Shown: positions 9,619 through 23,901, counted from the stretch's first letter. The stretch: DNA of 64,000 nucleotides from an uncultured bacterium (GCA_963706585.1 OY970169.1:503086-567085), one strand, 5' to 3'. Made by a program: numbers and translations. The notes: a model not told the origin generated them from the letters alone.

Positions 9619-9657
9619 GTAATCTATCAGGATTATATTTAAAGATAGGTTATGATT

Positions 9658-9815
9658 ATGGCAAAAAATCGAGTAACAACTCATTTAGCATGTGAAGCAT
9701 GCAAAGAGCGTAATTATACGCAAGTTGTTGCTAAAAAGAGAACTATTGGTTCATTAAACTTAATAAGTTTTGTTCTCGTTGCCGCAAGCATAATGTGCAT
9801 AAAGAGACAAAGTAA
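9658..9815 (+). pseudogene. rpmG: Ribosomal protein L33 with an internal frameshift
   Basis: MAKNRVTTHLACEACKERNYTQVVAKKRT is in one frame. The conserved end LNKFCSRCRKHNVHKETK* is in another frame. Confidence 0.7.
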
Positions 9816-9824
9816 ATGTATTGA

Positions 9825-9900
9825 AGGCCAGTAGCTCTAACGGTAGAGCGGCAGACTCCAAATCTGCGGGTTGGGGGTTCGAATCCCTCCTGGCCTGCCA
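9825..9900 (+). tRNA. tRNA-Trp (CCA)
   Basis: 76-nt cloverleaf with anticodon loop cuCCAaa and a CCA end. Confidence 0.85.
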
Positions 9901-9933
9901 ATTAACGATAAAGGAAAAACATTGCAATACGCA

Positions 9934-10102
9934 ATGGAGTAATGAAGGCAAATTATGCAGTTTCTTAAAGAAGTAAAAATTGAGCTTAACGCGGGTTGAA
10001 TGGCCTAAAACTGATGAATTCATAGGTGCTACATTAGTAACACTTTTATTAGTTCTCTTTTTTACCATATATCTTGGTTTTGTTGATAGATGGTGCTATT
10101 AA
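9934..10102 (+). pseudogene. secE: Preprotein translocase SecE, frame-disrupted
   Basis: MQFLKEVKIELNAG then a stop. After a shift it continues EWPKTDEFIGATLVTLLLVLFFTIYLGFVD, which is the SecE TM helix. Confidence 0.6.
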
Positions 10103-10161
10103 ATGGGTTATTTACAACAATTTATAGCTATGTAACAAATCGGAACATGGACTCATAATAC

Positions 10162-10690
10162 ATGAAACGATGGTATGTTGTCCAGGTATATGCTGGATAT
10201 GAAGATATTGTAAAAACTGATTTAGAAAAGCGTATTGAAGAACAAAATCTTGCAAGAAAATTTTGGCGAAATTCTTATTCCTTCAGCCAAGATGAAGCAG
10301 TTTTTTGATACTGATGATGCTATAAAAGATCAGCAGCTTTTTCCTGGCTATATGCTTATTGAAATGGAAGCGATACCTCCGAAGCAATTCGATTAGTTGC
10401 AAGCACGCCTCGTATATCACGGTTTTTAGGTGGTAAAGAGCCAGTCGCCTCTTTCACAAAAAGAGATTGATCGTATTCTTGCTCAAATGAGAGGTGAAGT
10501 TGTTGTTTCAGCTGAAAAGCATGAATTTGAAGTTGGTAAAGAAGTTGAAATTAAAGAAGGTCCATTTGCTGGATTTATTGGCATTATTGATACAGTATAG
10601 ATGAAGAAAATGAAAAACTTACGGTTATGGTAAGTATTTTCGGAAGAATGACACCGGTAGAATTAGGTTTTGATCAAATCAAACGATTAA
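10162..10690 (+). pseudogene. nusG: Transcription antiterminator NusG, frame-disrupted
   Basis: MKRWYVVQVYAGYEDIVKTDLEKRI...(NFGEILIPSA)... is split over at least three frames by premature stops. KOW-like segments (EVGKEVEIKEGPFAGFIGII) are recognisable. Confidence 0.65.
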
Positions 10691-20200: not shown

Positions 20201-21352
20201 TGAAGGTCAAACAGTTGTTATGAGCCGAAAAGCAAGACTTGTAATTGTGCTCCTGATGGTCGTGAACTGCAACGTAATGATCTAGAATATGGCTCTAGTC
20301 TTCTGGTAAAAGATGGACAAAAAGTTAAAGTTGGTACTAAGTTGCTGAATGGGATCCTAATAATAAAGTGATTCTTAACTGAAAAAGCTGGTACGATTAA
20401 CTATGTTGATCTTGATTGAAAATGTTACCGTTCAAGAGCGCTTTGATGAAGCAACCAATCGATCTAGCAAAGATGATCTTAGAACATAAAGGTGATAAAT
20501 ATCAGCCAGCAATTAGCATTGTTGATGAAAAGGGTGAAGAATTAGTTCAATATTATTTACCAACAGGTTCTTATCTTATCGTTGAAGATGATCAAAATGT
20601 TGAAGTTGGTGATATCTTGTTAAAATGCCACGAGAAGCATCAAGAACGAAGGATATTACCGGTGGTTTACCACGTATTGCAGAACTCTTTGAAGCACGTA
20701 TGCCAAAAGATCCTGCAATTATTGCTGATATTGATGGTGAAGTAGTATTTGGTGGCATTACATCGTGGATTACGAAAAGTTATCTGTTGTTAATGGCGAT
20801 GAAGTCATATGATTATTTGATTCCACGTGGCAAACAGTTAAACGTGGTTAATGGTGACAAGTAAGTGCAGGAGATCAGTTAACATCTGGTACTCCCGTAC
20901 TTCATGATATCTTGCGTATTTTAGGTCCTGAAACTTTGCAACGATATTTGGTTAATCAGATTCAAGAAATTTATCGTTTACAAGGTATTGATATTAATGA
21001 TCGGCATATAGAACTTATTGTACGTCAGATGCTGCGTAAAGTTCGTATTGTTGATCCAGGTGATACTGATTTCTTGATTGGGATCGTGTTGATCGTATTC
21101 ACTTTAAAGACGGTCAATGCTGCCTTACAAGCTGAAGGTAAGAAAGTTGCTAGTTGCAAAACCAGTATTAATGGGAATTACGCTAGCATCCTTGGCACAG
21201 AAAGCTTTATTTCAGCAGCATCATTCCAAGAAACGACGCGAATTTTGGCTGAAGCTGCAATTTCAGGGCAAGTTGATCATCTTTATGGTTTGAAAGAAAA
21301 TGTTATTATTGGTAAGCTTATTCCTGCAGGAACAGGAATTAAATCTTTCTAG
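17296..21352 (+). pseudogene. rpoC: RNA polymerase beta-prime subunit, broken into more than 8 ORF fragments
   Basis: RBS aaggaggaag followed by GTG. Includes the zinc-finger [68 protein letters not shown], and a C-terminal LIPAGTG, spread over alternating frames. Confidence 0.75.
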
Positions 21353-21406
21353 GAAAAAATATCTTAGAAGCATGAAAAGCAAAGAACAAGTATAAATAGT
21401 ATATTA

Positions 21407-21481
21407 AGGCGCGTAGCTCAGTGGTAGAGCATTGCTTTGACGTAGCAAGGGTCAGCGGTTCAATTCCGCTCGCGCCTACCA
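21407..21481 (+). tRNA. tRNA-Val (GAC)
   Basis: 75-nt cloverleaf with acceptor stem aggcgcg/cgcgcct, anticodon loop ttGACgt, a TPsiC arm (agcggttcaattccgct) and a CCA end. Confidence 0.75.
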
Positions 21482-21520
21482 AAAAATACTAGAGGAGTTT
21501 TACATGGCATATTAACAAAA

Positions 21521-21769
21521 GTGGAAGTTATAAAAGAAGTACAACTAAATGAGTATGATACAGGCTCTATCGAAGTTCAAGTGGCTTTGCTAACGGAGCG
21601 AATTAACAAACTTAAAGAACATTTTAAGGTACATGCTAAGGATTTTGGTTCTAAACGAGGTTTACAGCTTTTAGTTGGTCAGCGTCGTCGTTTTCTAGAT
21701 TATATTAACGAACACGATGAAGAAAAATATAAAAAGTTAATTGAGCACCTGGGCTACGTAAATAGCTAA
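21521..21769 (+). CDS. rpsO: Ribosomal protein S15; the conserved N-terminus appears cut off by a 2-bp indel at 21504-21520
   Basis: 82-aa ORF with DTGSIEVQVALLTERINKL...RRGLQLLVGQRRRFLDYI. Upstream, atggcatattaa reads MAY*. Removing 'ta' gives MALTKVEVIKEV, the expected S15 start. Confidence 0.7.
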   Translation: MEVIKEVQLNEYDTGSIEVQVALLTERINKLKEHFKVHAKDFGSKRGLQLLVGQRRRFLDYINEHDEEKYKKLIEHLGYVNS

Positions 21770-21818
21770 CAGAGGTGATTGGCATTATTCTGAGCAAATA
21801 CTATATAGGTCAATATAC

Positions 21819-23901
21819 ATGGAAAAAAAATTTTACTTACCCGAATTTAATTATGAAGTAGTGACGGGTAAATATGCCGAACAAGCAGATGGTGCTATTT
21901 GGTTGCAACAAGGAGGAACTGTTGTTCTATCAACAGCCGTTTCTGCTCCTTCTAAAGAGTTTCCTGGGTTTTTACCATTAACCGTCGATTATCGCGAGCA
22001 TTTTGCTGCTGCTGGAAAAATTCCCGGTGGTTATTATAAGCGAGAAGGCAAATTTAGTGATAAAGAAGTATTACATGAGCGTCTTATTGATCGCGCAATA
22101 CGCCCGTTATTTCCTTCAAATTATTTTGATCAGCTCCAAATATTAGCAACGGTTTATTCAGTTGATAAAGACCATATACCGCAAATGCTGGCTTTGATTG
22201 CAACTCATTAGCCCTTACTATTTCAAAAATACCATTTTTAGGTCCTGTTGGTGCTGTAGAAGTTGGTCGAATTGATGGCAAATGGGTGTTCAATCCTACA
22301 TATATCAAGACAGCTTACTTAGTGATGTAAAAATAACCGTTGCCGGTACCCATGAAGGCATTTGCATGGTAGAAGGGATGACACAGGAAATTTCTGAAGA
22401 AGAATTTAGTTGATGCACTCTTTCAAGCCCATGAAACCATTAAAGAAACAAGTTGCTTGGCAAAAAGAGATTCAGCAAGAAATTGGTCAACCTAAAGAAG
22501 AAATCGTTGATCCGTTTGATTGGGCTCTTTGGAATAATAACGCAGAAAATTTTTTAACCGATGAAGCTGTGGCTCCTTTATACACGAGCGATAAAGCCGA
22601 ACGTAGCAAAGGCATGTCTACGTTAAAAGACAATTTTTTTAAAAAATATGAAAAAGAAGCTGAAGAAGCCACCATCTCACGCACATTCTTAACCTACGTA
22701 TTTGACGAAGTACTCGAAAGTGCTCACCGAACACGCCTTTGCTGTTGGTAAGCGCGTAGATCAACGTAGTTTTGATACTATTCGAAAGATTTCGACAGAA
22801 GTTGGTCTTTTGCCATTCAATCATGGTTCGGCCCTTTTCAATCGAGGAGAAACACAAGCATTAGTCAGTGTAACCCTTGGTGGTGGTCAAGATGAGCAGC
22901 GCATTGAAGATATAATGGCTGACAGCTCTGAGAGTGCATTTATGCTCCACTATAATTTCCTACCATTTTCTGTCGGTGAAGTGCGAGCAATGCGTGGTCC
23001 GGGTCGACGTGAAATTGGTCATGGCTATTTAGCTGCCTCATCTGTCAAACCAATGTTGCCCTCAAGCGAATATTTCCCTTATACCATTCGTATTGTTGCC
23101 GACATGTTGGGATCTGATGGTTCAACTTCGATGGCTACCGTTTGTGGCTCGACCATGGCTCTCATGAATGCTGGTGTGCCGATTAAAAAGATGGTCAGCG
23201 GTATTGCTATGGGGCTTCTAGGAAGTGCTGATGGGCGCTTTCAGGTGCTCAGTGATATTGCTGGTATTGAAGATGCTTTTGGTCTTATGGACTTTAAGGT
23301 AGCCGGCACCGATGATGGTATTACTGCTATTCAAATGGATATTAAGTATAAAGATGGCTTGCCAAGAGAAATATTTGTAAAATCACTTGCTCAAGCACGT
23401 ACAGGAAGGCTCCATATTTTAGCGGAAATGCGCAAAGTAATGACTGCGCCAAATCCAAAGCTTTCTGAACTTGTTCCTCAAATTGTGAGCTTTAAAGTAC
23501 CAACCGATAAAATTGGTGCTATTATTGGCACAGGTGGTAAAGTTATTCGAGATATAATTGAAAAAACGGGAACTACCATTGATATTGAAGATGATGGTAC
23601 CGTAAAAATTTTCGGTCATCCAGGTCCAAAACTAGATCAAGCAGTTCTTTGGGTTAAGATGCTTGGTGGTTTAATTGAACGAGGCATAGTTATCGAAGGG
23701 CGTATTAGAAAAATAGCTGATTTTGGTATCTTCGTTGAAGTTGCCCCTGGCCTCGATGGGCTTGTACATATTTCTAACATGCCGCGTCACCGACAAACAG
23801 ACTTTATGAAAACCATGAAAGTTGATGAGGTTGTGACCGTTGAAATAGTTGATTATGAAGAATCTACAGGACGAATTCGTTTAAAGTTGATTGAGAAATA
23901 A
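21819..23901 (+). pseudogene. pnp: Polynucleotide phosphorylase, N-terminal half fragmented and C-terminal 399 aa intact
   Basis: 21819-22211 is the PNPase N-terminus (FAAAGKIPGGYYKREG). 22702-23901 carries RNase-PH domain 2 plus KH (GKVIRDIIEKTGTTIDIEDDGTV) and S1 (GRIRKIADFGIFVEV). At least two frame breaks lie between them. Confidence 0.75.

Follow-up and report, generated by a model that had tools for sequence, protein, structure and literature searches.

Frameshifts across the rpmG-rpoBC-pnp cluster of a Dependentiae genome as a probable consensus artefact of two merged functional alleles

The window analysed here, a stretch of 64,000 nucleotides from an uncultured bacterium (GCA_963706585.1 OY970169.1:503086-567085; positions are counted from its first letter), belongs to the Dependentiae (TM6/Babeliales), the best matches of one of its RpoB fragments among species-representative genomes all being Dependentiae, with at most 92% amino acid identity. 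It contains, on the forward strand, a cluster of tRNA, ribosomal protein, RNA polymerase and polynucleotide phosphorylase genes in which no protein-coding gene from rpmG up to the N-terminal half of pnp has an unbroken reading frame. Between approximately 9650 and 22700 no open reading frame (ORF) exceeds 213 amino acids, while intact ORFs, the longest of 753 amino acids, lie close together throughout the flanks. Fragments from the window were assigned by NCBIfam profiles to rplK, rpoB, rpoC and pnp, and the breakage of the genes is present in the deposited genome itself, with 7 of 10 window fragments and a 213-amino-acid rpoC piece present as gene calls on a 1,417,897-nt NCBI/ENA contig.

Frameshifts were counted with a purpose-written frameshift-aware protein-to-DNA aligner, guided by intact proteins from a relative (L003). 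This gave a total of approximately 110 (about 1 per 115 nt), the first at 9755 and the last at 22721, with none in the flanks, and a few in-frame stops in addition. The events in this frame-broken zone comprise approximately 65 gains of one base (+1), 13 of two (+2), 27 losses of one base (-1) and 4 of two (-2), the ratio of gains to losses being about 3:1. The gene rpmG (L33; 9658-9815) has one frameshift, a -1 at approximately 9755, and is followed by secE (9955-10145, end approximate) with three, nusG (10162-10689) with four, rplK (L11; 10711-11138) with three, rplA (L1; 11158-11861) with seven, rplJ (L10; 11879-12395) with five and rplL (L7/L12; 12437-12819, start approximate) with five. 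At least 36 were counted in rpoB (12947-17304), with further ones in a variable segment, and 39 in rpoC (17279-21386). Duplicated or garbled sequence was considered for the segment of rpoB at 16060-16310 and rejected, as this is the normal variable segment, crossed via frame hops. In rpsO (21504-21765) there is a +2 at 21508-9 and a -1 at 21750 when measured against the intact 86-amino-acid gene on L081, a contig of the same organism described below, and pnp (21819-23901) has 5-8 frameshifts, all of them N-terminal and reaching up to 22721. The C-terminal part of pnp (22722-23880) differs from L081 by 28 substitutions (approximately 2.5%) and by no insertion or deletion (indel), an outcome with a probability of 3e-5 for 1.16 kb at the indel rate of the block.

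A previous, sequence-only reading of this DNA had described the cluster from rpmG to pnp as broken and the long flanking genes as whole, which is borne out here, although the damage, at approximately 110 events, is larger than was noted then. The extent it gave, 9650-23000, holds for the broken frames and fails for the limits of the anomaly, which in comparison with an independent assembly spans 9137-23880 and takes in tRNA-Tyr and the C-terminal part of pnp.

The tRNA genes of the same block are intact. At its left edge, tRNA-Tyr (GTA; 9129-9214) folds perfectly and has four differences from the allele in the independent assembly, all within 20 nt (9137-9156, tRNA positions 9, 13, 16 and 28); both versions look foldable, the D-arm being more canonical by eye in the version of the window. 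It is followed by tRNA-Gly (TCC), tRNA-Thr (TGT) and tRNA-Thr (GGT), which lie at 9272-9618 and score 67-75 bits, by tRNA-Trp (CCA; 9825-9900) and, beyond rpoC, by tRNA-Val (GAC; 21407-21481), inside which L081 starts at 21435. All six gave full-length matches without indels, where the rate of the coding regions predicts approximately 4.2 indels (P(0) = 0.015).

The layout of the window (tRNA-Tyr/Gly/Thr/Thr, rpmG, tRNA-Trp, secE, nusG, rplKAJL, rpoB, rpoC, tRNA-Val, rpsO, pnp, rph) was the same in all six Dependentiae relatives compared, and tuf was found inside the cluster in none of the six. Both the absence of tuf and the position of rpmG, which had earlier been taken as hints of a secondary copy, are therefore typical of the clade and have no bearing on that question; the suggestion was wrong. 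Judged by this gene order, the block sits at its native locus, and its left edge lies in tRNA-Tyr, the element with which the syntenic cluster conserved throughout the clade opens. An ORF of 394 amino acids at 49-1233 was considered as a displaced tuf and rejected, being murA.

Two contigs of the same organism, L083 and L081, were retrieved from the Logan assembly of run ERR11523662 by exact-protein look-up with intact flanking genes. L083 corresponds to 4315-9186 of the window and is identical to it up to 9136, after which come the four mismatches in tRNA-Tyr. L081 corresponds to 21435-35678 and has 93 differences (79 substitutions and 12 gap openings), all of which fall in 21508-23880, the following 11.8 kb (23881-35678) being 100% identical. 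Identity between the window and the two contigs is thus 100% over 16.6 kb of flank (4315-9136 and 23881-35678), and the comparison confines the differences to a block of approximately 14.7 kb with sharp edges, at approximately 9137-23880. At the same locus, L081 encodes an intact RpsO (86 amino acids) and an intact PNPase (693 amino acids). The sequence-only reading had proposed that intact frames in raw reads at this place would mark a consensus error, and the Logan contig supplies such frames for rpsO and pnp. Whole frames in an unmerged assembly are also what a merger of haplotypes predicts, and they were found for these two genes in a comparison that covers the sequence outside 9187-21434. 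The short-read-style Logan contigs end in tRNA-Tyr (9186) and tRNA-Val (21435), at both ends of the rpoBC part.

For the interior (9187-21434), ERR11523662 yielded no contig. Protein searches for intact rpoC and rpoB of the same organism gave matches of at most 91% (for the 213-amino-acid rpoC fragment) and 85% (for a frame-corrected RpoB of 1028 amino acids), and a control marks this kind of search as uninformative, the known intact PNPase of L081 likewise not being returned. The 90% cluster to which that PNPase belongs is represented by a 106-amino-acid fragment from the source genome. Since the control was missed, masked by a fragment representative, the lack of a near-identical intact RpoB is no evidence of absence. 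Cluster look-ups of 10 window fragments found no hidden intact Logan sibling.

The substitutions in the block follow the pattern of functional genes. Between the window and L081, 43 of the 79 substitutions are synonymous (54%), compared with a random expectation of 22.5% (p = 7e-10). Among 116 Dependentiae RpoB sequences, 502 columns are near-invariant, and the frame-corrected RpoB of the window has a substitution at none of these, where approximately 9.5 deviations would be expected if substitutions were as frequent as indels (P(0) = 8e-5) and approximately 28 at a ratio of 3:1. Frame-corrected PNPase likewise has no deviation at 156 invariant columns, and frame-corrected RpoC has at most three at 411, two of them adjacent and probably reflecting a short out-of-frame stretch. 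The near-perfect amino acid conservation reported earlier for the fragments is thereby put into numbers. The block is a real allele under selection, neither noise nor decay. A merger of haplotypes would require that both inputs be functional alleles free of random damage, and this is what the invariant columns, the tRNA genes and the synonymous share all display.

At the sites that differ, the base of the window is much more often shared by other Dependentiae than is the base of L081. Polarising the differences with L003, the closest relative, as outgroup showed that the outgroup agrees with the window base at 47 sites and with the L081 base at 9. At synonymous sites only, the counts are 24 and 6, against a third-position background of 47%, and the asymmetry appears in the part of pnp with many indels as well as in the part without any. 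The allele of the window is thus less derived than that of L081. Changes on the L081 lineage in 21508-23880 are biased from AT to GC (34 versus 17). A majority consensus over distant relatives was considered as the sole cause of the ancestral-like alleles and rejected, as only about 3% of sites differ and the variable segment of rpoB is shared with the resident.

The frameshifts themselves are placed in a codon-aware manner. An event was called a synonymous doublet where dropping either of two adjacent unlike bases yields the same protein, and the null expectation was obtained by planting random indels in unbroken rpoB and rpoC genes taken from four relatives and passing them through the identical pipeline, because the aligner puts skips only at codon boundaries, which would bias a naive simulation. 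Doublets account for 41 of the 49 +1 events in rpoB and rpoC, compared with 90 of 181 simulated ones (p = 1.6e-5), and for 50 of 63 (79%) when the small genes are pooled with them, against the same simulated 90/181 (50%; p = 3e-5). Homopolymer-type +1 events are depleted, at 4/49 (8%) versus 65/181 (36%) in the simulation (p = 8e-5), and the mean run length at the events (2.59, versus 2.69 at random positions) indicates no enrichment in homopolymers. The shortening of AA to A, singled out in the sequence-only reading, is accordingly not typical of the lesions.

Leucine codons contribute heavily to this pattern, with Leu codons reading CTTA or CTTG in 14 of the 49 +1 events but in only 9 of the 181 simulated ones (p = 1.4e-5), and with five or six of 18 -1 events consisting of Leu codons cut to TT or TG. 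This is the outcome expected where an alignment that penalises gaps lightly pairs synonymous codons (such as CTT/TTA or CTA/TTA) and the overhanging bases are both kept or both dropped. Two +1 sites in pnp (22405-22440), compared with L081 and 25 relatives, have both alleles written out: at 22405 the window reads TTTA, where L081 has TTA and 13 of the 25 relatives have TTT, and at 22440 it reads ATTA, where L081 has ATA and 16 of the 25 have ATT, so that TTA and TTT in the one case, and ATA and ATT in the other, stand side by side. The bases at 22201-22203 are consistent with a third-position C/T difference beside a T of which neither base was kept. Indels at nucleotides that differ between the inputs, as a merger of haplotypes predicts, are thus seen directly at 22405 and 22440.

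These observations are best explained by a computational chimera of two closely related functional alleles, in which the frameshifts are artefacts and not biology, a reading to which a probability of roughly 0.85 is assigned. Under this explanation, the resident allele (A), intact in ERR11523662, and a second allele (B), diverged from it by a few percent, would have ended up in a single path when the long reads were assembled or polished. Wherever the two differ, choosing A would leave no trace in the comparison, choosing B would give a substitution, mostly synonymous, keeping both bases would give a +1 frameshift and keeping neither a -1. In 22722-23880 one allele would apparently have been dominant, with B called without indels. 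As both inputs were functional, their differences would lie at synonymous or variable codon positions, and the frameshifts would fall there too and leave the encoded amino acids pristine, while the tRNA genes would be clean because A and B barely differ in them. The software step responsible is inferred, and in the sister assemblies described below contig names of the "contig_N" type suggest Flye.

Allele B must, to judge from the sequence, come from a close relative, because the lesions run through the variable segment of rpoB (approximately 16060-16310), whose length matches that in some members of the family. As an independent intact gene it was not found, the exact frame-corrected B-type RpsO being absent from the protein collection. 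It could come from a co-occurring sister strain or species whose sequence merges with that of A nowhere outside the most conserved syntenic cluster, which fits the left edge. A more tentative possibility, held to be rather unlikely, is that B is a second haplotype of the same population, with the 14.7-kb tRNA-rpoBC-pnp cluster diverged by about 3% and the chromosomes otherwise identical; this fits the 100% identical flanks, the sharp right edge without a synteny break and the shared variable segment of rpoB. If so, DNA of a sister lineage would recently have replaced, by homologous recombination, the most conserved stretch of the genome, and the frameshifts would remain artefactual.

The same signature recurs in other assemblies. 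Two further Dependentiae contigs from ENA metagenome assemblies both end inside rpoB: in L084 (ERZ25039466 contig_26499, 1-8100) rpoB and rpoC are shattered and pnp and rph intact, and in L085 (ERZ25039516 contig_73615, 1-7030) rpoB, rpoC and pnp are shattered and rpsO, rph and the downstream genes intact. Their +1 events include 10 doublets out of 13 and the Leu CTTR pattern in 4 of 13, which makes the signature a systematic property of such assemblies and not of this genome. In the protein clusters that contain RpoB fragments of the window there are, besides, numerous short pieces of RpoB from other ENA contigs, up to 16 in a cluster. The contigs in these clusters include megabase-sized ones, of 1,733,188 and 995,664 nt.

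Several points weigh against the merging of two alleles in its simplest form. About 80% of the differences polarise the resident as derived, so that a simple two-allele mix fails, and either rates of evolution must have been unequal or three or more sequences merged; the polarity and the AT-to-GC bias together point to a resident lineage that evolves fast or in an unusual way, or again to a merger of more than two sequences. The excess of +1 over -1 events, about 3:1, and a Leu share above that expected from synonymous single-nucleotide polymorphisms might be rationalised by an indel-tolerant consensus that favours doublets beside an identical base. At the right edge (23880) there is no break of synteny in the relatives examined. 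The same-organism reference stops at either side of 9187-21434, and that rpoB and rpoC are intact in the real organism is an extrapolation from rpsO, pnp and the shared signature of the lesions. That the reads behind this assembly contain two alleles is likewise deduced from the doublets, which include the resident allele.

Among the alternatives, an ordinary unpolished or low-coverage long-read consensus, with random indel errors left over about one read length, would account for a block of read-like size (14.7 kb) and for the frequency of indels, about 1 per 115 nt. Frameshift errors in long-read assemblies are reportedly treated in the proovframe preprint, and they have been described in long-read metagenome-assembled genomes (PMC9262707). 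Random errors would not, however, avoid homopolymers or choose codon-aware positions (p ~1e-5), spare invariant residues from random substitutions and tRNA genes from any damage, produce substitutions of which 54% are synonymous relative to the resident, or leave 1.16 kb diverged without an indel (P = 3e-5), and this explanation is largely refuted and considered improbable. The third option of the sequence-only reading, a local failure of assembly or consensus, is the only one of its three that holds, in the form of a collapse, which is upheld by the intact L081 and the doublets; low coverage as the cause is not supported, as the lesions are not random noise. The first option of that reading, a decaying redundant copy with an intact one elsewhere, can draw on the many frameshifts and few stops in essential genes and on the existence of an intact allele (L081). 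That allele, however, occupies the same locus with identical flanks and not another place, and the copy in the window has the native gene order of the clade, is the less derived of the two at 47 versus 9 sites with L003 (and also at synonymous sites) and has no substitution at 502 and 156 invariant residues. Bacterial pseudogenes reportedly show a deletion bias, as Mira, Ochman and Moran are said to have described in 2001; here insertions are in excess, with extra and missing bases at about 3:1. Neither relaxed constraint, with a ratio of nonsynonymous to synonymous substitution rates (dN/dS) approaching 1, nor a more derived copy, nor a secondary or rearranged position was seen at this locus, and decay is contradicted to the point of being very improbable.

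Much the same small weight is given to a transfer of symbiont DNA into a host nuclear genome, where it would persist as a slowly evolving fossil later mis-threaded into the bacterial chromosome. Dependentiae live inside protists, and the ancestral-like state of the window allele relative to the resident recalls fossils of the kind known from nuclear mitochondrial DNA segments (NUMTs). Such an insert would have eukaryotic flanks and neutral decay. Both flanks are instead bacterial and 100% identical to an independent assembly, the constrained sites are free of neutral damage, the indels are codon-aware and their ratio to private substitutions, near or above 1, is unlike neutral decay; moreover, alleles stand side by side at 22405 and 22440, and the pattern is also present in Dependentiae contigs from other samples. 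The undamaged residues, the codon-aware indels and the bacterial flanks thus speak against the corresponding option of the sequence-only reading, that of host transfer or absence of selection. The least probable explanation, hardly credible on present evidence, is that the frameshifts are real and corrected in expression, either by RNA editing or by a programmed +1 slippage at CUU-A/G of the kind known from Ty1 or prfB. The perfect conservation of amino acids across approximately 110 frame changes would agree with this, as would the 14 of 49 +1 sites with CTT-A/G at Leu, which resemble the slippery site of Ty1 (CUU-AGG). Recoding would, however, involve one type of shift at a defined slippery motif in the sole genomic version, and what is found is a mixture of +1, +2, -1 and -2 events and stops with no common motif, confined to this block, and intact genomic versions of rpsO and pnp with identical flanks. 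The -1 events that leave TT of a Leu codon are the mirror image expected of merging and not of slippage, and 79 mostly synonymous substitutions relative to an intact version are beyond any recoding mechanism.

The merging of two alleles has parallels among known assembly artefacts. Consensus indels from merged haplotypes were reported in early FALCON assemblies (Korlach et al. 2017, PMC5632298), and the present case resembles them in that the indels are computational and lie at nucleotides differing between the collapsed sequences, the flanks and invariant positions are clean and the frames are whole where alleles were kept apart (here in L081). It differs in that the two sequences are alleles of bacteria from a (meta)genomic sample, not diploid haplotypes, and in that a single conserved cluster of 14.7 kb is affected. 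A second parallel is the collapse of repeats between genomes, as in rRNA operons and ribosomal-protein/rpoBC clusters, since the block coincides with the longest clade-wide syntenic cluster and starts at its first element, and L084 and L085 stop inside rpoB as at a tangle of the assembly graph; the right edge at 23880, with no synteny break, departs from this, and identical flanks of 16.6 kb fit two haplotypes of the same population at least equally well. Homopolymer errors of nanopore, 454 and IonTorrent sequencing also leave frameshifted but otherwise well-conserved genes in deposited genomes, although they are genome-wide, concentrated in runs and scaled with coverage, in contrast to one block in which the homopolymer-type share is 8% versus 36% and no concentration in runs was found. 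Pseudogene clusters in reductive genomes such as those of Mycobacterium leprae, Rickettsia and Sodalis likewise present adjacent frame-disrupted genes in a run, but they gain substitutions at constrained sites and deletions, neither of which occurs here, where an intact allele is present at the same locus.

The case is of no consequence as biology, since the organism almost certainly has whole copies of these essential genes for transcription and translation. It constitutes a quality problem in a public genome, in that an apparently complete chromosome of 1.42 Mb has all the rpoB, rpoC, ribosomal-protein and pnp markers of the block shattered. The broken fragments have been registered as proteins and, as cluster representatives, mask intact proteins in a large clustered collection. 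Artefacts of this kind can lower completeness estimates and skew marker-gene phylogenies, and in symbiont genomes they can pass for pseudogenisation, lateral transfer or recoding. A diagnostic that needs no reads is offered by frameshifts at synonymous-variable positions, a lack of homopolymer bias, pristine invariant residues and clean tRNA genes.

The flanking regions of the window contain many genes for ankyrin-repeat and F-box-like proteins, at 1272-6074 (reverse strand), 25863-31062 and 35358-38545, an effector-like repertoire typical of intracellular Dependentiae. Those at 1272-6074 include six tandem ORFs of approximately 245-265 amino acids that are partly alike, with 87.5% identity over 160 nt between 3500-3658 and a stretch near 4315. 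Among the ankyrin genes, a reverse-strand gene at 27229-28809 (L081 5793-7364) encodes a protein of 523-526 amino acids with matches to the AAA_35 and AAA_16 ATPase families and a faint match to NucS_C, which may be related to defence or be a STAND-like NTPase. On the reverse strand at approximately 34286-34878 (L081 12852-13444), a gene for a PemK-family toxin of 116 amino acids adjoins an ORF of 80 amino acids, with which it probably forms a toxin-antitoxin pair.

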